DNA of 7,352 nucleotides from a virus (Duplodnaviria > Heunggongvirae > Uroviricota > Caudoviricetes), in the IMG/VR virus record IMGVR_UViG_2563366829_000008; one strand, written 5' to 3'. Below are positions 1-7,352 of the stretch, piece after piece. The position numbers and the translations under genes are program-made. A model generated the notes under the pieces. The model did no database searches and was not told the DNA's origin. It saw nothing but the letters and a program-made list of their open reading frames with translations. Numbering within the stretch: the stretch's first letter is position 1; every line of letters starts with the position of its first letter.

Positions 1-176
1 CCGGTATCCCGCTCATGCTGGCGAACCCAGACACGCAGAGTCTCCGGCGTACAGCCAATCTTTGGAGCAATGGAACAAATTGTCGCCCATTGTGAGTCAT
101 ATTCGCTCTGACTTTCCAGAACCATACGGACTGCCCGTTGACGGACTTCGGGGGAAAAACGAGTATTTTTAGTCAT
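1..176 (-). CDS. IS3-family transposase OrfA, N-terminal part (partial; 3' end outside window)
   Basis: Minus-strand ATG at 176..174 preceded by AAGAGG; translation is [59 protein letters not shown], an HTH-containing OrfA N-terminus typical of IS3-family (IS629-like) transposases. Not in the ORF track because it is truncated by the window edge. Confidence 0.8.
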
Positions 177-230
177 CCTGTTTACCTCTTTCTCAGGAAG
201 TTTAGTCTCCAGGATTCCCGGGGCGGTTCA
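1..230 (-). mobile_element. Partial IS3-family insertion sequence (IS629/IS1203-like), left end; terminus at 230, element continues beyond window start
   Basis: Minus-strand read from 230 begins TGAACCGCCCCGGGAATCCTGGAGACTAAACTTCCTGAGAAAGAGGTAAACAGG ATG, matching my recollection of the IS629 left inverted repeat and leader (IS3-family 5'-TG terminus). It is followed by the orfA start. Identity to a specific IS is recalled, not searched. Confidence 0.8.
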
Positions 231-258
231 AACACACCAAATGCATCGGAGTTGATTC

Positions 259-684
259 ATGAAAATCAGGCATGAGCACATCCGCATGGCGATGAATGCC
301 TGGGCGCATCCGGACGGTGAAAAAGTTCCGGCAGCTGAAATAACCCGGGCTTATTTTGAGCTTGGTATGACGTTCCCGGAATTATATGACGACAGCCATC
401 CGGAAGCCCTGGCTCGCAATACCCAGAAAATTTTCCGCTGGGTGGAGAAAGACACTCCTGATGCGGTTAAAAAAATTCAGGCGTTGTTACCAGCGATCGA
501 AAAAGCAATGCCGCCTCTGCTGGTGGCCCGAATGCGCAGCCACAGTTCAGCTTATTTTCGGGAGCTGGTGGAGACGCGGGAACGACTGGTGAGAGACGCT
601 GATGATTTTGTCGCAGTGGCGATCGCTGGTTTCAACCAGATGAATCGTGGTGGCCCTGCAGGAAATATTGTGGCTGTGCATTGA
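259..684 (+). CDS. ydaT: YdaT-like protein (PF06254 family; reported functional analogue of lambda CII in Rac-type prophages)
   Basis: 141-aa ORF with GGAG 7 nt upstream of the ATG. N-terminus MKIRHEHI and C-terminal ...VH, length and position immediately before the replication initiator gene match my recollection of YdaT proteins. Family assignment is from memory. Confidence 0.65.
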   Translation: MKIRHEHIRMAMNAWAHPDGEKVPAAEITRAYFELGMTFPELYDDSHPEALARNTQKIFRWVEKDTPDAVKKIQALLPAIEKAMPPLLVARMRSHSSAYFRELVETRERLVRDADDFVAVAIAGFNQMNRGGPAGNIVAVH

Positions 685-755
685 CTCGCAATATTCATAC
701 CGGATCACTTCCGGCAATTTGTGAGTAAAAAGATTCGGTATCAGAAGAGGTGAGT

Positions 756-1796
756 ATGGCTAACGCCTGGCTCAGATTATGGCATGACATGCCAAATGAC
801 CCTAAGTGGCGAACAATTGCCAGGGTGTCAGGGCAGCCAATTGCAACAGTGATGGCAGTGTATATCCACCTTCTGGTGAGCGCGTCACGAAATGTCACGA
901 CATGTCACGGCGTGTCACTACGTGGTCACATTGATGTCACGACGGAAGATTTAGCAAGTGCGCTTGATGTGACGGAAGAAGTAATTGATTCAATTTTACA
1001 GGCAATGCAGGGGCGGGTACTTGATGGAGATTTAATCACCGGATGGGAAAAACGCCAGGTACTGAAAGAGGACAATGGCAACGTTTCACAAACCGCGAAA
1101 TCCCCGGCAGAGCGCAAGAGAGCGCAGCGCGAGAGGGAAAAATTACGAAAACAGAATGAGGGGTGTCACGACGAGTCACGCATATGTCACGACATGTCAC
1201 GACGAGTCACGACAGATAAAGATACAGATAAAGAATTAAACCCCACACATAACGCGCACGTGCGCGAGAGTGCTCCGACCAGTGAGTCGAGTGGTACGCC
1301 GTTGCAGGCAGCAGAACCTGCATCCCTGGATGGACTGAGCGAACCCATCGGGAAATTTCCGATGGTCGATGACTGGCATCCGTCGCCGGATTTTCGACGA
1401 CGGGCTGCGTTGTGGGGGATGGCTTTGCCGGAGCCGGAATTTACACCTGCTGAACTTGCCGCTTTCCGGGACTACTGGGCAGCGGAGGGGAAAGTTTTCA
1501 CGCAGGTTCAGTGGGAGCAGAAATTCGCCCGTCACGTAAATCACGTCAGGGCGCAGGTTAAGCCAGTCAGCAAGGGGGTAAACCATGCAGCAGCACCAGG
1601 TGGCACCGCATCACGGGCAGTTCAGGAAATTCGGGCAGCACGTGAGCAGTGGGAACGTGAAAACGGATTTATCAGCGACGGAAACGGTCTGGAAGCTGTG
1701 GGAACTCATGGGGGAGGTTTATTCGAACCGCTGGACCCAGAAGAACGGGGCCGCACCTTCGAAGCTCTGGATTGCACAGATTGGCGCGATGACTGA
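756..1796 (+). CDS. Phage replication initiator (O-like) with DnaT-like C-terminal ssDNA-binding domain; 3' end uncertain (overlaps next gene)
   Basis: ATG at 756 preceded by AGAAGAGG (the track's 750 start is a GTG two codons upstream). The C-terminal region GKFPMVDDWHPSPDFRRRAALWGMALPEPEFTPAELAAFRDYWAAEGKVFTQVQWEQKFARHV closely parallels the E. coli DnaT C-terminal region ([29 protein letters not shown]...[20 protein letters not shown], recalled). The coding sequence contains two iteron clusters, as with ori-lambda inside O. Confidence 0.75.
   Translation: MANAWLRLWHDMPNDPKWRTIARVSGQPIATVMAVYIHLLVSASRNVTTCHGVSLRGHIDVTTEDLASALDVTEEVIDSILQAMQGRVLDGDLITGWEKRQVLKEDNGNVSQTAKSPAERKRAQREREKLRKQNEGCHDESRICHDMSRRVTTDKDTDKELNPTHNAHVRESAPTSESSGTPLQAAEPASLDGLSEPIGKFPMVDDWHPSPDFRRRAALWGMALPEPEFTPAELAAFRDYWAAEGKVFTQVQWEQKFARHVNHVRAQVKPVSKGVNHAAAPGGTASRAVQEIRAAREQWERENGFISDGNGLEAVGTHGGGLFEPLDPEERGRTFEALDCTDWRDD
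884..942 (+). repeat. Iteron cluster 1: six GTCAC(G/A/T) core repeats at about 10-11 bp spacing
   Basis: GTCAC cores start at 884, 894, 904, 914, 925 and 936 (spacings 10, 10, 10, 11, 11), i.e. one per helical turn, embedded in the initiator ORF (encodes ...SASRNVTTCHGVSLRGHIDVTT...). Confidence 0.75.
1165..1240 (+). repeat. Iteron cluster 2 (five GTCACG repeats) plus adjacent AT-rich stretch; candidate phage origin of replication core
   Basis: GTCAC cores start at 1165, 1175, 1186, 1196 and 1206 (spacings 10, 11, 10, 10), immediately followed by AT-rich gacagataaagatacagataaagaattaaa (1211..1240). This is the lambda-ori layout of iterons then an AT-rich unwinding region inside the O gene. 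Confidence 0.7.
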
Positions 1797-2250
1797 GCAG
1801 CAAATCCGACAGGTCTGCCGCCAGTGCATGGACCGCTGCCGGGCGGGTGAAACATGGCCTCCGGACCTGGCTGAGTTTGTGGCGCTGATTTCAGAAAGCG
1901 GGGCCAATCCATTTGGCCTGACGGTGGATGCTGTGATGGAGGAGTACCGCCGCTGGCGTGATGAGTCCTGGCGATATGACGGAAGCGACAAATATCCGTG
2001 GCCTCAGCCTGTGCTGTACCACATCTGCCTCGAAATGCGTACCAGAGGGATTGAGCGCCAGATGACGCAGGGTGAGTTAAAACGACTTGCGGAACGGCAA
2101 CTGACGAAATGGGCAAAGCATGTTGGTAACGGGATGAGTGTTCCGCCAGTGCGACGACAACTGGAAGGGGCGAAACACCCGCAAGGGCCAACGCCAATTG
2201 AACGGCTGAAACAGGAATACGAACGCCGGAAGGCAGCTGGTTTTATTTGA
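1585..2250 (+). CDS. Lambda P-like replication protein (DnaB helicase loader)
   Basis: 221-aa ORF; ATG 1585 preceded by AAGGGGG at 7 nt. Blocks such as PPDLAEFVALI and YPWPQPVLYHICLEMRTRGIERQMTQGELKRLAERQL parallel lambda P (PGQFVAWC... and YPWKSNAHYWLVTNLYQNMRANALTDAELRRKAADEL, recalled). The first 212 nt overlap the upstream ORF out of frame, so the true start could be later (e.g. ATG 1708). Confidence 0.75.
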   Translation: MQQHQVAPHHGQFRKFGQHVSSGNVKTDLSATETVWKLWELMGEVYSNRWTQKNGAAPSKLWIAQIGAMTEQQIRQVCRQCMDRCRAGETWPPDLAEFVALISESGANPFGLTVDAVMEEYRRWRDESWRYDGSDKYPWPQPVLYHICLEMRTRGIERQMTQGELKRLAERQLTKWAKHVGNGMSVPPVRRQLEGAKHPQGPTPIERLKQEYERRKAAGFI

Positions 2251-2283
2251 ATCTGAGAAACGATTTTGTCGGAGGAAATTTTA

Positions 2284-3054
2284 ATGGAAACCGTATTTGA
2301 CGCACTGAAAGCAATGGGAAAAGCCACATCGGTAGAACTGGCCGCGCGACTTGATATCAGTCGTGAAGAGGTTCTCAACGAGCTGTGGGAACTCAAAAGA
2401 AAAGGCGTCGTTGATAAAACTGGTCACACCTGGTTTCTGGCTGGCGAAGGTGAATCCCGGGTAACCGAAGAGCGGCCAGTAAAATCTGAAGCACAGGATA
2501 TGCTGACCGGGGAGGTCGAACAAAAAGTTACCGCAGACATGATGATTGAGTTTATCGGTCAGGATGGGGCTAAAACGTGTGAGGAACTGGCGGGTAAGTT
2601 CGGTGTCAGTACTCGCAAGGTTGCTTCCACGCTGGCGGTGGTAACCGCAACGGGGCGGCTGGCACGCGTTAATCAGAACGGTAAATTTCGTTACTGCATG
2701 CCGGGCGATAATTTACCAGCAGAGCCGAAAGCCGCGCTGGTAACGGAAAGTGATGGTAAGGCCTTTCCTCAGCCAGCAGGTGCTGCGTTACCAGTCCGGG
2801 AAGCCGCAACACAGGAAGAAATTAAAACAGAAACTGTGGCGGACATTGTGCAGCCGTTGCCATCGTTTACCGAAACGCAAGCAGATGAGCTGATTTTTCC
2901 GTCCCTTCGCAGGGCAAACCTGGCGCTGCGCAGGGCGAAAAGTGATGTTCAGAAGTGGGAGCGAGTCTGCGCCGCGCTGCGGGAGCTGAACAAGCACCGG
3001 GATATTGTTCGACAGATTACTGATTCTTCCCGCCGTGTTGTATCGGAAAAGTGA
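2284..3054 (+). CDS. Hypothetical phage protein with two tandem winged-helix-like DNA-binding regions
   Basis: ATG 2284 with GGAGG 8 nt upstream (the track's 2266 start is TTG). Two similar segments ([28 protein letters not shown]... and [33 protein letters not shown]...) look like repeated HTH/winged-helix units. No confident family assignment. Confidence 0.65.
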
Positions 3055-3069
3055 TTGCCGGAGGCGCTT

Positions 3070-3495
3070 ATGGCAAAAGTATTTACACAAGAAGAGCGGG
3101 AAAAAATTAAAGGGCAGGTTGTTGAACTTGTACGTCTGAGCGGTCGCGAGACGTTGCGGCAACTGGAAGCCAAGACAGGTGCGACAAGATATCTGATGAG
3201 TGTTCTCGCCAGAGAGCTGGTTGCCAGTGGCGATGTATACAACTCTGGTTACGGGTTATTCCCGTCTGAACAGGCGCGTAAGGACTGGCAAAATGCTCGC
3301 AAAAAACTCTCAAGGGCAAAGGTGAAGAAACCTGCAGTGGTTGATCCGGACCTTATCTGGTCGTTACCAGACGGCGAAATACGCCGCTACGACAGGCGCC
3401 TGAATATAATCTGTCGCGAGTGCCGGAAGAGCGAAGCTATGCAGCGTGTACTGGCATTTTATCAAGGAAATGTTAGGTATTTTAGACGTTACTAG
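3070..3495 (+). CDS. Hypothetical phage protein (nin-region-like small basic protein)
   Basis: ATG 3070 with GGAGG 5 nt upstream, 16 nt after the preceding stop (operon-like packing). 141 aa, basic C-terminal half; no motif recognised. Confidence 0.6.
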   Translation: MAKVFTQEEREKIKGQVVELVRLSGRETLRQLEAKTGATRYLMSVLARELVASGDVYNSGYGLFPSEQARKDWQNARKKLSRAKVKKPAVVDPDLIWSLPDGEIRRYDRRLNIICRECRKSEAMQRVLAFYQGNVRYFRRY

Positions 3496-3648
3496 ATTAA
3501 AGAGCATTAGTTCAGATGTGAATTGACATTTTCATGGCGCAGGGTAGAGCCAGCGTGGTTGTCCGCTTTGCGTCAAAACCAGATATTACCAGATTTAGAC
3601 ATATATTCCCGATAGCCCTGCTCTGATGCTACACTCTGTGCTATTTTC

Positions 3649-4335
3649 ATGACCCCAATAAAAATATTTATGACTATTGCTGATTTCAAACGGCCTAAAT
3701 TGGAGCTCCCAAACGGGGCAAACAAACTACTACTGCACTCTTGCTGTGCTCCATGTTCCGGTGAAGTGATGGAGGCGCTTCAGGCCTCGGGAATCGACTA
3801 CACCATCTTTTTCTACAACCCGAACATTCATCCTCAGAAAGAGTATTTAATTCGTAAGGATGAAAATATTCGCTTTGCTGAACAACACGGCGTGCCGTTT
3901 ATCGATGCTGATTACGACACCGACAACTGGTTTGAACGTGCCAAAGGAATGGAATGGGAGCCTGAGAGGGGGATCCGTTGTACCATGTGTTTTGACATGC
4001 GTTTTGAGCGGACAGCGTTGTACGCTGCTGAAAATGGTTTCAGTGTGATCAGCAGTTCACTGGGCATTTCACGCTGGAAAAATATGCAGCAGGTTAACGA
4101 GTGTGGGCGGCGAGCTGTTGCGCATTATCCGGGTATGGTGTACTGGGATTATAACTGGCGCAAGCAGGGCGGCTCGTCCCGTATGATTGAAATCAGCAAG
4201 CGCGAAAAATTCTATCAGCAGGAATATTGTGGCTGTGTGTATTCTCTGCGCGATACCAATCTACACCGCAAATCTCAGGGACGCCCTCTTATCAAAATTG
4301 GCCAACTCCACTACGGAAAAGAAGAGAAGGAGTGA
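3649..4335 (+). CDS. queH: Epoxyqueuosine reductase QueH (DUF208 family)
   Basis: Contains the motifs I recall as QueH/DUF208 hallmarks: [37 protein letters not shown] and YCGCVYS (conserved Cys cluster). Start uncertain: ATG 3649 or ATG 3670, neither with a strong SD. Confidence 0.85.
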
Positions 4336-4367
4336 TTTTATGGATCACCTTTCTGATTGATTTCATA

Positions 4368-4396
4368 TTGGCGAGGTGACGTGAGTTAAGTAGAAT
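4368..4396 (+). promoter_or_regulatory. Candidate sigma70 promoter of the hok/mok mRNA (TTGGCG-N17-TAGAAT)
   Basis: -35 TTGGCG at 4368..4373, 17-nt spacer, -10 TAGAAT at 4391..4396. The predicted start near 4403 coincides with the 5' element (4401..4414) that is complementary to the mRNA 3' end (4778..4792), as expected for hok-family transcripts. Confidence 0.45.
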
Positions 4397-4449
4397 GGCT
4401 GCGGGTGCTTGAGGCTATCTGTCTCAGGCATGAACACTGAAAGGCAGAT

Positions 4450-4524
4450 AGAGAAAAGCCCCAGTTAACATTTCGCGTCCTGCAAGACGCTTAACATTAA
4501 TCTGAGGCCCAATCTATGTCTCAC
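4450..4524 (-). ncRNA. sok: Candidate Sok-like antisense RNA covering the mok SD and start codon (inferred)
   Basis: Inferred from hok/sok architecture. Minus-strand promoter-like TTGCCT-N17-TAACCT (plus coordinates 4559..4531) would start transcription near 4524. The antisense transcript spans the mok RBS (GAGG 4504..4507) and ATG 4516, contains the hairpin GCGTCTTGCAGGACGC, and ends in CTGGGGCTTTTCTCT. The -10 is weak; boundaries approximate. Confidence 0.3.
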
Positions 4525-4728
4525 AAATGTAGGTTAGCCTCTTACGTGCCGAAAGGCAAGGGGAAGCAGGCTATGAAGCAGCAAAAGGCGATGTTAATCG
4601 CCCTGATCGTCATCTGTTTAACCGTCATTGTGACGGCACTGGTAACGAGGAAAGACCTCTGCGAGGTACGAATCCGAACCGGCCAGACGGAGGTCGCTGT
4701 CTTCACAGCTTACGAACCTGAGGAGTAA
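4516..4728 (+). CDS. mok: Mok-like reading frame (N-terminally extended, in frame with hok; translational coupling element)
   Basis: 70-aa ORF; ATG 4516 with GAGG 8 nt upstream. It is in frame with hok and has a 19-aa basic extension (MSHKCRLASYVPKGKGKQA), the same layout as E. coli MokC (69 aa with HokC at its C-terminus, recalled). Confidence 0.55.
   Translation: MSHKCRLASYVPKGKGKQAMKQQKAMLIALIVICLTVIVTALVTRKDLCEVRIRTGQTEVAVFTAYEPEE
4573..4728 (+). CDS. hok: Hok/Gef-family type I toxin (HokD/RelF-like small membrane peptide)
   Basis: 51-aa product MKQQKAMLIALIVICLTVIVTALVTRKDLCEVRIRTGQTEVAVFTAYEPEE: a single TM helix plus the conserved CE.R..G..EVA.F.AYE motif of Hok family toxins. As far as I recall it is essentially identical to E. 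coli HokD (RelF). Confidence 0.85.
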   Translation: MKQQKAMLIALIVICLTVIVTALVTRKDLCEVRIRTGQTEVAVFTAYEPEE

Positions 4729-4797
4729 GAGACCCGGCGGGGGAGTAATCTCCCGCCACCTCTGATGTGCCAGGCATCCTCAACGCACCCGCACTTA

Positions 4798-4817
4798 ACC
4801 CGCTTCGGCGGGTTTTT
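4798..4817 (+). terminator. Rho-independent terminator after hok (ACCCGC-TTCG-GCGGGT followed by TTTTT)
   Basis: 6-bp GC-rich stem 4798..4803 / 4808..4813 with a TTCG tetraloop and a 5-T run; sits downstream of the hok stop after the fbi-like element. Confidence 0.75.
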
Positions 4818-4829
4818 GCATTAGTCTGG

Positions 4830-4858
4830 TTGACAAAAATAGAAAAATGCGAAAATAT
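4830..4858 (+). promoter_or_regulatory. Candidate promoter for the two-gene cassette (perfect -35 TTGACA; -10 ambiguous in an A-rich stretch)
   Basis: TTGACA at 4830..4835. Downstream, tgcGAAAATATG (4848..4859) offers a TG-extended GAAAAT or AAATAT -10 at 15-17 nt spacing. Lies between the hok terminator and the ATG at 4894. Confidence 0.35.
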
Positions 4859-4893
4859 GTGGTTTACGAATTCTAAAAAAAGCGAAACTTGAA

Positions 4894-5544
4894 ATGAATG
4901 AAAATCAGTTAGCTCCTTGTTGGGAATTTCAACCTTATCTTGCTGAAAACTATGTTCGCCACTTGTTGGCGGAGATCGCTAACGTACTTGAGCAGCTGTA
5001 CTATCATAAGCACGCATTAGACAGCAACTGGTCTGAAGGTGTAAGGGCTTATGATTGGGTCAGAAATCATCTTATTCAAAATGAAGATGCAATTCCTGGC
5101 CTTGAGATGATTTCCAAGGGGTTGGACTATGTAGTTGCTTTAAATAAAGTTCCGCTACAATTTACCAAAGATTGCATTAATAACCCCAAAAAGAAACATC
5201 GTCTGCGTCGAAATAAAGTAGAGTATGAGCAGCTCTCATTGTTTGGTGATGTTGAGGCTGAGCAAGATATTACATGGCGAGTCATAGCTGAGCCTTTTTT
5301 ATCCGAAGAGGGCGATGGTGAATTAGAGTCCACACTGCCTCGTTGGGAGGTAGCTCTTGTTGGATTTAATACTTATGGTGCTCAGATTAGTATAGTTTCT
5401 CATCAATCTACAGCATCGATGCCGCTTATGCCTCTTGATTATAACACACTCCCTGACGAAGCGGAGATTAATAAGGTGCCTCTTCGTCGGCGTACGAAGG
5501 ATAAAGATTTGGATGTGAGCAGTGATGGAACATCAGGTGAATAA
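4894..5544 (+). CDS. Hypothetical protein, 216 aa, no recognisable domain; first gene of AT-rich cassette (candidate toxin/effector partner)
   Basis: Long ORF in visibly AT-richer DNA than the flanking phage genes. Its stop (5542..5544) lies 20 nt inside the next gene, indicating translational coupling. Acidic C-terminal third; no catalytic motif recognised by eye. Confidence 0.75.
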   Translation: MNENQLAPCWEFQPYLAENYVRHLLAEIANVLEQLYYHKHALDSNWSEGVRAYDWVRNHLIQNEDAIPGLEMISKGLDYVVALNKVPLQFTKDCINNPKKKHRLRRNKVEYEQLSLFGDVEAEQDITWRVIAEPFLSEEGDGELESTLPRWEVALVGFNTYGAQISIVSHQSTASMPLMPLDYNTLPDEAEINKVPLRRRTKDKDLDVSSDGTSGE

Positions 5545-6628
5545 CTTCACTGAGTATCGGGGTGATAAGCTCAAACTAGCGAGAATGGCTGTTGGGCTTT
5601 CTTGTGAAGAGTTAGCCGAAAAAATTGGCAAGACAAAGCAATTCGTTAGCAAACTGGAGAAGGGGTGCAGGCCATCGGAGCAATGTCTTGAGTTAATATC
5701 TTCAGCGCTTATGATTAAGTCCAGTTTTCTTTTTACTGAACGAAAATACGCTCTGGAAAGTGATGTCTGCCATTTTCGGAGTAAGAAGTCCAGGACTCAA
5801 ACGCTGACTAATAGTGTATTGGCCAGGGCTGAGATTCTTAATATTATAATTTCTGCTGTTGAAGGTGAAATCGAATTTCCTGACGTTAACATACCGGAGC
5901 ACCCAGGGGCTGAATTACTTACTCCGAATGATATTGAGCGAGTGGCAGAAGATTGTCGCCGTGCCTGGAATTTAGGTCTTGGCCCTATATCATCAATGGT
6001 TAAATTGGCGGAGAGTTTAGGGGTAATCGTTGCGCATGTTACGGGAGTCGATGATCGTGTTGATGCTTTTACTGTTCACAATAACAGGCCTGTTATCATC
6101 AGGAACAATGTTAAAAAAAGCATATGTAGATTTCGCTCTGATTTAGGTCATGAATTAGGGCATTTAGTAATGCATGAGGGCATAACGACAGGTGATAAAC
6201 TTACGGAATCACAAGCCGATCACTTTTCGAGCGCCTTATTAGTTCCCAGGTTATCTTTCATTAAAGAATTTCCACGAATACGAGGTAAGCAATTCGACTG
6301 GAATGCTCTGGTTGAATTTAAACTTAGATGGAAAATCAGCCTTAAAATGTGTATTTATCGAGCCAGCGCATTAGGCTTATTGACCCAGGAACAGGCAAGA
6401 ACTGGCTATATGCATCTTAATTCCAGAGGGTATACGAGAGTTGAACCTGGTGATGAACTTTTGCGCCCTGAAGAACCCGGCATGCTGGCCGAGGCGATTG
6501 AAATGCTGGATGATGCAACCTGGCTAAGAATTCTTATGAAAACTGGCTTGAGCCAAGATTTAATTCGTGAGTTGTTCTCCATCAACAGACCTATTACAAA
6601 TCCAAGAAATATTTTCCAGATTGTTTGA
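5525..6628 (+). CDS. XRE-family HTH domain fused to ImmA/IrrE-family (COG2856 / M78-like) zinc metallopeptidase domain
   Basis: N-terminus LKLARMAVGLSCEELAEKIGKTKQFVSKLEKG is a classic XRE HTH. HELGH (HExxH) at 6149..6163 followed by E...ADHFSSALLVP matches the ImmA/IrrE signature. ATG 5525 (the track's 5522 is GTG). Confidence 0.85.
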   Translation: MEHQVNNFTEYRGDKLKLARMAVGLSCEELAEKIGKTKQFVSKLEKGCRPSEQCLELISSALMIKSSFLFTERKYALESDVCHFRSKKSRTQTLTNSVLARAEILNIIISAVEGEIEFPDVNIPEHPGAELLTPNDIERVAEDCRRAWNLGLGPISSMVKLAESLGVIVAHVTGVDDRVDAFTVHNNRPVIIRNNVKKSICRFRSDLGHELGHLVMHEGITTGDKLTESQADHFSSALLVPRLSFIKEFPRIRGKQFDWNALVEFKLRWKISLKMCIYRASALGLLTQEQARTGYMHLNSRGYTRVEPGDELLRPEEPGMLAEAIEMLDDATWLRILMKTGLSQDLIRELFSINRPITNPRNIFQIV

Positions 6629-6632
6629 GTAT

Positions 6633-6654
6633 ACCCGCTTCGGCGGGTTTTTTG
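6633..6654 (+). terminator. Rho-independent terminator after cassette (same hairpin as 4798..4817, followed by a T-run)
   Basis: ACCCGC-TTCG-GCGGGT stem-loop 6633..6648 followed by TTTTTT; 5 nt after the stop codon at 6626..6628. Confidence 0.75.
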
Positions 6655-6737
6655 TTTTTATTTTCAACGTGTTTGAAGTTTTGGACGGTGCCAGAATAGA
6701 ATCAAAAATACTTAAGTAGCGCGCAGGGAGAAGAGGG

Positions 6738-6959
6738 ATGGACCCCGAACAGGGGGAGTGCTATTTATCTGGAAGGATTCTGTTGATGAAAATCGAAGAA
6801 TTACGTGAAATTTTTAGTGAAGATGGCCTCTATGCTGTGCGCGTTGAGAATGGGGGTATTACCTACACAGCGTTAATTCCTGATGATCATGTAGTGTTAT
6901 CTGTTGAGGCATTCATTGAATACTTGGAAAGACTCGGTTTCAAGGTAGTTCGGGAATAA
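6738..6959 (+). CDS. Small hypothetical prophage protein (alternative start ATG 6786)
   Basis: ATG 6738 has GGGAG 7 nt upstream; ATG 6786 has GGAAGGA 8 nt upstream and begins the AT-richer part (MKIEELREIF...). No family recognised. Confidence 0.5.
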   Translation: MDPEQGECYLSGRILLMKIEELREIFSEDGLYAVRVENGGITYTALIPDDHVVLSVEAFIEYLERLGFKVVRE

Positions 6960-7018
6960 GTTATAATACGTGAGCCAGCCTGAACAACTGGCAACCTGCA
7001 GCGCCATTGGAGATGACA

Positions 7019-7291
7019 ATGGCGCATAATTTCAAATTTCGCAATTCTGATTCTGCCTTTGCCAGCAGGCACGGGTGGCGTTCTCACGCATTCAAATATG
7101 ACTGGTATCAGCACGATCCCTGTACTGAAGAACAGGCCGAATGGCTGATTCATAACTACCGCAGACGTGGATATGAGTTTAGGAAAGCCCTCACCCTCGA
7201 TTATCGTCACTGGATAATCTACGTCAGACTCCCTTATTCCGAACGCCCACCGCGTCCGTCCCGCACATTCCAGCAACGCATCTGGAGGTAA
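7019..7291 (+). CDS. Small hypothetical prophage protein (about 90 aa)
   Basis: ATG 7019 with GGAG 6 nt upstream (the track's 7007 start is an upstream in-frame ATG). Sequence looks like a genuine protein (...EEQAEWLIHNYRRRGYEFRKALTLDYRHW...). The overlapping minus-strand ORF 6887..7276 looks less protein-like. Confidence 0.5.
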   Translation: MAHNFKFRNSDSAFASRHGWRSHAFKYDWYQHDPCTEEQAEWLIHNYRRRGYEFRKALTLDYRHWIIYVRLPYSERPPRPSRTFQQRIWR

Positions 7292-7292
7292 C

Positions 7293-7352
7293 GTGCGGGT
7301 ATTACTTCGACCTGTTCTGGTACCGGAACTCGGGCTGGTGATCGTTAAGCCG
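7293..7352 (+). CDS. Possible start of a downstream gene (partial, runs off window)
   Basis: GTG at 7293, 4 nt after GGAGG (7284..7288) and 1 nt after the previous stop; the frame stays open to the window end (VRVLLRPVLVPELGLVIVKP). Too short to assess. Confidence 0.2.
   Translation, partial: MRVLLRPVLVPELGLVIVKP

Follow-up and report, generated by a model that had tools for sequence, protein, structure and literature searches.

A probable RosmerTA toxin-antitoxin module carried as a moron in an ompW-integrated lambdoid prophage of Escherichia coli

Genes, signals and joints of the cassette

The window analysed here is the whole stretch of 7,352 nucleotides (nt) taken from the IMG/VR virus record IMGVR_UViG_2563366829_000008 (Caudoviricetes). 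Its element of interest is a two-gene cassette at positions 4818-6652, which very probably represents a RosmerTA (RmrT-RmrA) toxin-antitoxin (TA)-type anti-phage module residing as a moron in a lambdoid prophage integrated at ompW. The first gene, rmrT (4894..5544, ATG, + strand), encodes a candidate toxin of 216 amino acids (aa), annotated in RefSeq as a hypothetical protein (WP_001004956.1). The second, rmrA (5525..6628 from its ATG, + strand), encodes the antitoxin or regulator, a "helix-turn-helix domain-containing protein" in RefSeq (WP_000401168.1); its open reading frame (ORF) can also be read from an alternative GTG (5522..6628, 368 aa), in which case the ATG at 5525 is codon two. An earlier note on this DNA, made without database searches, had proposed two genes overlapping by 20 nt. 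The ORF list supports this arrangement, and the overlap is real because the RefSeq gene bounds, 4894..5544 and 5525..6628, agree with it exactly on 100% identical DNA in E. coli 042 and MS 196-1.

As the same note had remarked, the cassette is richer in AT than its surroundings. Its G + C (GC) content is 41.7%, against 52.7% for the replication genes at 1-3500, 48.3% for 3500-4797 and 47.0% for 6653-7352. The terminator attributed to it was also recovered: a terminator scan located a hairpin with a T-run immediately after rmrA (6633-6648, + strand) and an identical hairpin behind hokD (4797-4814). Both hairpins coincide with an exact 20-nt direct repeat, ACCCGCTTCGGCGGGTTTTT, characterised by repeat search, terminator scan and empty-site alignment. 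The left copy (4798..4817, + strand) is the intrinsic terminator hairpin of hokD and the left insertion joint, and the right copy (6633..6652, + strand) is the terminator of the cassette and the right insertion joint. The empty site was built as a synthetic join of the two cassette flanks and searched as one contiguous piece. This contiguous hokD-terminator-rem junction was found in 2809 of 5426 complete E. coli genomes, 237 of the 5426 carrying the cassette, and in 15 phage records (e.g., the PPompW phages), so that the insert is indeed lacking in related prophages, as had been supposed. Alignment with the empty site places the cassette joints precisely. The exact repeat, the empty site and the precise joints identify the cassette as a moron of 1835 bp that entered an ompW-integrated lambdoid E. 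coli prophage at the hokD terminator, between hokD and rem. Presence or absence at a fixed site, deviant GC content and a terminator of its own are all as expected of a moron, and a promoter of its own is partly supported.

The promoter proposed earlier stands as far as its TTGACA element is concerned, which lies at 4830-4835 within a promoter/operator-like region (4827..4887, + strand), but not as far as a -10 element is concerned. A consensus scan 16-18 nt from this TTGACA found no -10 hexamer with at least 4/6 matches, the best candidate being AAATAT at 17-nt spacing (3/6), and no canonical sigma-70 promoter was called. The same region holds two direct-repeat boxes of 28 nt, TGGTTGACAAAAATAGAAAAATGCGAAA and TGGTTTACGAATTCTAAAAAAAGCGAAA, located ahead of the rmrT start at 4827-4854 and 4860-4887. 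They are 71% identical, lie 33 nt apart, begin with TGGTTGACA and TGGTTTACG, respectively, and contain the -35-like TTGACA. Boxes of the TGGTTGACA type also occur twice at the equivalent spot in the Rosmerta cassette of Escherichia phage Tritos (see below). We infer that these boxes are candidate operator sites for the helix-turn-helix (HTH) domain of RmrA.

Upstream, the cassette adjoins a hok TA locus, again as noted earlier, with a sok RNA at 4403-4578 (Rfam, 120 bits) and Hok ending at 4728. The ORF list gives Hok as a 70-aa ORF starting at ATG 4516, whereas RefSeq annotates hokD as a 51-aa product (4573..4728); the 5' extension of the longer ORF overlaps the sok/mok regulatory region.

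The two proteins and the conservation of their pairing

The fusion of an XRE-type HTH with an ImmA/IrrE-type peptidase, which the earlier note had read in the second protein, was recovered by Pfam searches as an HTH_3 domain (residues 17-63; nt ~5570-5710, + strand) and a Peptidase_M78/ImmA-IrrE domain (residues 177-282; nt ~6050-6367, + strand). The latter includes HELGH, the zinc-binding and catalytic HExxH motif (residues 210-214, i.e., H210, E211 and H214; 6149..6163, + strand), and a putative third zinc ligand, E229 (nt 6206-6208, + strand). The C-terminal ~85 aa form a region without assigned domain. RmrA matches the PADLOC RmrA model PDLC03943 (E 6e-105) together with 13 further RmrA models, and falls in phrog_2439 ("transcriptional regulator"). 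It is a full-length homologue of the experimentally verified RmrA of E. coli OLC-716 (29% identity, E 2e-35), the verified RmrT and RmrA sequences being those of Table S2 of 10.1101/2022.05.11.491447. It also aligns over its full length with a RipB-like protein (25% identity, E 1e-24) from a RipAB locus sought by primer scan, which returned nothing in viral contigs and found the locus in genome contigs. Since H210, E211, H214 and E229 are invariant in the 10 aligned RmrA-type proteins, including the verified RmrA and the RipB-like protein, the peptidase of RmrA is probably active. The match to the NCBIfam family NF052239, spr1629 repressor/antitoxin (155.9 bits, E 1.5e-45), lies below the 335-bit cut-off; RmrA is thus a homologue of the spr1629 family and not an equivalog.

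RmrT has no match in Pfam or NCBIfam, and it matches the PADLOC RmrT model PDLC03929 (E 4.6e-25), residues 7-209 aligning with positions 5-195 of the 198 in the model, as well as phrog_5786 ("unknown", E 8e-85). The protein is acidic (pI, isoelectric point, 4.9), and no transmembrane segment was detected in it, the top 19-residue Kyte-Doolittle window reaching 0.84 in a region predicted to form β-strands. Its family is small and proteobacterial: a profile search of 1.84 billion representatives retrieved only 69 proteins, 17 of them at E ≤ 1e-10 and most of 195-225 aa, with named members from Enterobacterales, Xenorhabdus, Serratia, Plesiomonas, Pseudomonas, Aeromonas and Rhizobium. Among 54 aligned representatives, just two positions, P8 and E110, are conserved at the 90% level. 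Two AlphaFold2 models, with predicted local distance difference test (pLDDT) scores of 62 and 66, suggest two N-terminal helices, a six-stranded sheet and a long low-confidence loop at residues 92-126. A structural-neighbour search with the RmrT model returned nothing significant, and no fold could be assigned. RmrT shows no sequence similarity to the verified OLC-716 RmrT, the two falling in separate PADLOC models (PDLC03929 versus PDLC03935). Comparison of the RmrT family profile with the RipA-like protein, which falls in PDLC03931, gave an hhalign probability of 0.14.

All Rosmerta features that can be tested on sequence are present here: adjacent, co-oriented and overlapping genes, an RmrA profile match with HTH, M78 and HExxH, and an RmrT profile match. 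The earlier view of the cassette as a TA-like, anti-phage-type module, for which Rosmerta had been named as an analogue, is thereby confirmed by the PADLOC matches of both proteins. Those same matches overturn two companion claims. The system is not undescribed, as both proteins match models of an already named system, an outcome that the note had itself listed as a refutation, and the partner of RmrA, in which the note recognised no motif, does belong to a known family, as it is covered over its full length by PDLC03929 and belongs to phrog_5786. The cassette is therefore not a new kind of system, and its toxin flavour is already catalogued in PADLOC. Our search of the literature found no experimental test of the PDLC03929 toxin flavour, nor any account of how such a toxin kills.

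The pairing of the two genes extends well beyond this prophage. We examined nine distant relatives of RmrT (17-26% identity), eight of which come with enough downstream DNA. All eight are followed by an overlapping gene for an HTH_3 plus Peptidase_M78 protein of 359-377 aa, which starts 11-29 nt inside the toxin gene; the contig of the ninth stops 138 nt into an overlapping ORF of this kind. The flanks of these distant pairs are unrelated, and include integrases, HigB, a reverse transcriptase, a type ISP restriction enzyme and HEPN/RES proteins. The rmrT-rmrA pair is thus a conserved, translationally overlapping operon in which the toxin gene comes first. Within E. coli, rmrT and rmrA were each found in 237 of the 5426 complete genomes, rmrA being full length in every one. 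Two cassette copies among the 237 genomes are disrupted, and both lesions hit rmrT. In FDAARGOS_1249 (locus 592-1560), an IS5 sits in the 5' part of rmrT, leaving a 141-aa remnant beside an intact rmrA, and in PS1Thumoskin9 the rmrT match is split into two pieces with 78% covered. Damage to rmrT but never to rmrA is what a toxin-antitoxin pair predicts, although two events are only suggestive.

With this assignment, a "hypothetical protein" and its neighbour, an "HTH domain-containing protein", both present in ~4% of complete E. coli genomes (including those of strains 042, ABU 83972, VR50 and ML35), become recognisable as a Rosmerta defence/TA module. That a Rosmerta system should be found in a prophage moron will come as no surprise to specialists.

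A clamp-motif-like peptide and the possible mode of action

Alignment column counts single out the segment E110-Y-E-Q113-L-S-L-F117 (codons at 5221..5244, + strand) as the best-conserved element of the RmrT family: E110 is found in 49 of the 54 representatives, Q113 in 42 and L116 in 36 (plus 12 with F or M), followed by F or L. Preceded by a basic patch of net charge +7 (residues 96-109), the segment is modelled within the loop that connects β3 to β4, where pLDDT is low and falls below 50 at residues 100-110 and 118-123. Its last five residues, QLSLF (113-117), correspond to the pentapeptide QL[S/D]LF, which is the established consensus for binding to the β sliding clamp. A match to QL[SD]LF arises in 0.03% of shuffles of RmrT. 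Other members of the family carry pentapeptide (QLTLF, QYELF, QFSLF) or hexapeptide (QLSLAF, QLSLPL, QLNLSF) forms. A loose clamp motif is present in 25 of the 54 representatives against an expected ~10%, the aligned positions being the same family-wide.

Comparable peptides were found in two other Rosmerta toxin families. In the family of the OLC-716 RmrT, the segment corresponding to residues 143-148 of the verified protein reads, for example, QLKLDL, QLNLDL, QLDFGF or QMDLGL, and its Q is kept in 13 of the 13 members that have the segment. A clade from Vibrio, Photobacterium and Shewanella has a 12-residue deletion and shows NLDLF in six of seven members and NYDMF in the seventh. The RipA-like protein (2450-3178, - strand, of the fetched locus) begins with MLNQDLF and has a QLHLI at residue 192. 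The paper on RipA (PMC12795458) makes no mention of any motif, and in the literature that we searched the clamp has been linked to RipA alone among Rosmer toxins, with no shared motif reported. The occurrence of clamp-like peptides in three unrelated Rosmerta toxin families is an unreported lead.

What is known of other systems of this architecture provides the background. In the verified OLC-716 system, ΔrmrA is not transformable, and defence was seen at 37 °C (Millman et al. 2022, 10.1101/2022.05.11.491447). Defence has been shown for this flavour and for that of Gordonia phage Kita (PMC10440598). Vmi470 neutralises Vmi480, which is lethal by itself, and a deletion of vmi470 alone is not obtainable (PMC4671572). 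A prophage pair of E. coli E101 makes clpP essential, a requirement suppressed by a point mutation in the toxin (Rousset preprint, 10.1101/2020.05.25.114553). Pneumococcal RipA (Spr1630) binds DnaN and makes clpX essential, with suppressors falling in the hydrophobic pocket of the clamp; the antitoxin, RipB, is of the HTH-ImmA type, and the study assigns the RipAB pair to the "Rosmer" family (PMC12795458). Finally, SocB blocks replication at the β-clamp pocket (Aakre et al. 2013, as summarised in PMC5422525 and PMC12795458) and shares no homology with RipA (PMC12795458).

The cassette resembles these systems to different degrees. Like the verified OLC-716 RosmerTA, it is a two-gene operon in which a toxin of no assigned fold precedes an XRE-HTH and M78 antitoxin; the RmrA proteins are homologous and the OLC-716 toxin family likewise conserves a clamp-motif-like peptide, whereas the toxins themselves are unrelated and defence has been shown for the OLC-716 flavour. 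With RipAB (Spr1630/Spr1629) of Streptococcus pneumoniae it shares the architecture and an alignable HTH-peptidase partner, and RipA binds the very pocket in which peptides of the consensus type, such as the one carried by RmrT, are known to dock. However, RipA is not homologous to RmrT and has its clamp-like peptide at the N-terminus rather than internally, and RipAB is chromosomal in streptococci and was studied for competence rather than phage defence. Vmi480/Vmi470 from MGIVmi1 of Vibrio mimicus and E101_02645/02644 also consist of a domain-less toxin of ~200 aa upstream of an HTH-Zn-peptidase of ~360 aa, sit on mobile elements or prophages, and have an antitoxin gene that cannot be deleted alone; their RefSeq accessions differ from those of the window proteins. 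SocAB of Caulobacter crescentus (a type VI TA system) offers a parallel to the proposed block of replication at the clamp pocket and to the restraint of the toxin by ClpXP, but SocA is a proteolytic adaptor and not an HTH-metallopeptidase.

By analogy with other systems of Rosmerta architecture, RmrT would be toxic when RmrA is absent, and RmrA would neutralise it. Through its HTH, which may act at the TGGTTGACA boxes, RmrA would probably repress its own promoter, and ClpX/ClpP may help to restrain the toxin as in RipAB and the E101 pair. Phage infection would upset this balance, and the freed toxin would abort the infection. As to the killing step, we find it quite possible, at nearly balanced weight, that the exposed QLSLF of RmrT fits into the hydrophobic pocket of DnaN, the β sliding clamp. 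Entry of the loop into this pocket, which is our own inference, would displace polymerases and stall replication. Such a stall would affect the host and those phages that rely on the host replisome, and RipA and SocB act in this way. A broader and somewhat more tentative proposal is that the unrelated Rosmerta toxin families PDLC03929, OLC-716 and RipA converged on poisoning the β sliding clamp via short peptides (QLSLF, QLxLx[LF], NLDLF and an N-terminal QDLF). If so, Rosmerta would be a replication-arrest abortive-infection system whose toxins are held back by the antitoxin and ClpXP, and the RmrT of the window would add a new fold to the toxins that bind the clamp. Should the peptides prove functional, they would explain killing by several unrelated Rosmerta toxins and would tie the need for ClpX/ClpP, observed in two species, to a SocAB-like logic.

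Several observations weigh against parts of this interpretation. Toxicity, neutralisation and defence are extrapolated to the flavour of the window from systems of like architecture, and the -10 element of the proposed rmrT promoter is weak. The likeness to the E101 toxin (WP_001179380.1) and Vmi480 is one of architecture; family members with T46 or of 198 aa, sought as a link to these toxins, came from Pseudomonas, Aeromonas, Rhizobium or other sources and gave no such link. As regards the peptide, a strict QLxLF or QLxLx[LF] is present in only 14 of the 54 RmrT representatives. E110, which is outside known clamp motifs, is equally conserved, and the segment could instead be a site of RmrA binding or cleavage, or a degron. 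Because no similarity to either the verified RmrT or RipA could be detected in RmrT, a shared clamp target would have to be convergent. Furthermore, the Rosmerta toxin of Gordonia phage Kita depolarises membranes (PMC10440598), so Rosmerta toxins do not all have one target.

Other explanations were considered both for the cassette as a whole and for its toxin. The cassette might merely be a prophage addiction or stabilisation module, like hok/sok, without a role in phage defence. The hok/sok post-segregational killing locus that it directly adjoins fits this explanation, as does the fact that rmrA is never lost alone, which addiction predicts; moreover, the studies of Vmi480/470 and RipAB treated them purely as TA systems (PMC4671572, PMC12795458), and the reports of defence concern toxin families other than that of RmrT. 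We nevertheless regard it as unlikely, since the same architecture defends in E. coli OLC-716 and in Gordonia phage Kita, and the distant pairs adjoin the defence and mobile genes listed above; addiction and defence are, in any case, mutually compatible. A far less probable alternative is that RmrA is a DNA-damage-activated protease and regulator of the ImmR/ImmA or CapH/CapP type and the 216-aa protein its regulated cargo. ImmR/ImmA is an established case of such HTH-protease logic (cited in PMC10440598 and PMC12795458), RmrA gives partial PADLOC matches to capP (E 1.6e-14) and capH (E 1.5e-4), and the annotation of its homologues from phages of Clostridioides and Clostridium is that of a cI-like repressor or regulator. 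An HTH coupled to an M78/ImmA-IrrE peptidase with HExxH is also what RmrA has in common with ImmR/ImmA, CapH/CapP and DdrO/IrrE. Unlike those systems, however, RmrA combines both domains in a single protein of 367 aa and is paired with a toxin, and separate HTH and protease genes, as in CapH/CapP or ImmR/ImmA, are absent. The prophage also has its own immunity region (HTH repressor, YdaS/YdaT) ~6 kb upstream, the cassette is dispensable for this type of prophage given the 2809 genomes with an empty site, the pair travels together outside phages, and homologous systems consist of a toxic upstream gene and an undeletable antitoxin gene.

For RmrT itself, activity as an enzymatic toxin rather than a clamp binder, e.g., a degenerate PD-(D/E)xK nuclease, seems slightly more doubtful than addiction does for the cassette. 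The models are of only moderate confidence, and the family has no conserved constellation of acidic or lysine catalytic residues; beyond P8 and E110 no residue reaches 90%, and the residue at the would-be β2 position, D78, is variable across the 54 representatives. Membrane depolarisation, by which the Kita RmrT works, appears the most improbable of all, as RmrT is an acidic, soluble-looking protein with the low hydropathy maximum given above and has no similarity to the Kita toxin class. RosmerTA remains our favoured identity for the cassette, with clamp binding as a possible activity of its toxin.

Exchange at the hokD-rem junction and prophage context

Phage Tritos (OV696610.1) carries a different Rosmerta pair at the same site downstream of hokD, equivalent to window positions 4573-6660. 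The region 1514-3640 of its locus encodes TRITO_40 (204 aa, RmrT models PDLC03933/34), for which no homology with the RmrT of the window was found, and TRITO_41 (381 aa, RmrA model PDLC03947). The pair is bounded on the left by the same terminator hairpin and on the right by a copy with one mismatch. Because a different Rosmerta pair occupies the same site in Tritos, the hokD-rem junction looks like a hotspot for the swapping of Rosmerta cassettes, with the terminator as the joint. Among isolated phages, we found no DNA match to the cassette beyond the hokD terminator and no tblastn match for RmrT. Only two E. coli plasmids carry the cassette, NZ_AP026904.1 (200346-200993, 238 kb) and CP088590.1 (98426-99073, 175 kb); both are predicted to be non-mobilizable and their RmrT is 99.5% identical. 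The cassette is consequently not confined to the chromosomal ompW prophage.

The genes of the prophage are ordered int, xis, dicB, HTH repressor, YdaS/YdaT, DnaT-like, P, QueH, hokD, cassette and rem, followed by DUF968, RusA, Q and then lysis and terminase genes. The QueH (epoxyqueuosine reductase) homologue at 3649-4335 of the window (Pfam E 1e-65, phrog_3217) is an accessory gene that E. coli 042 lacks in a prophage otherwise resembling this one. At 6738-6959, where the PPompW phage records name rem, the window has an intact 73-aa ORF (phrog_340), and RefSeq annotates only a 75-nt partial pseudogene. An IS3-family element, inside which the window begins (positions 1-176; prophage locus 10963-12176), interrupts the immunity/early region just past the YdaS-like gene, and the prophage is probably defective or dysregulated in the strain that bears it. 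Outside the window, just downstream of Q (prophage locus 21544-23048), lie a serine/threonine kinase gene and a PP2C phosphatase gene, which may be another accessory or exclusion module.

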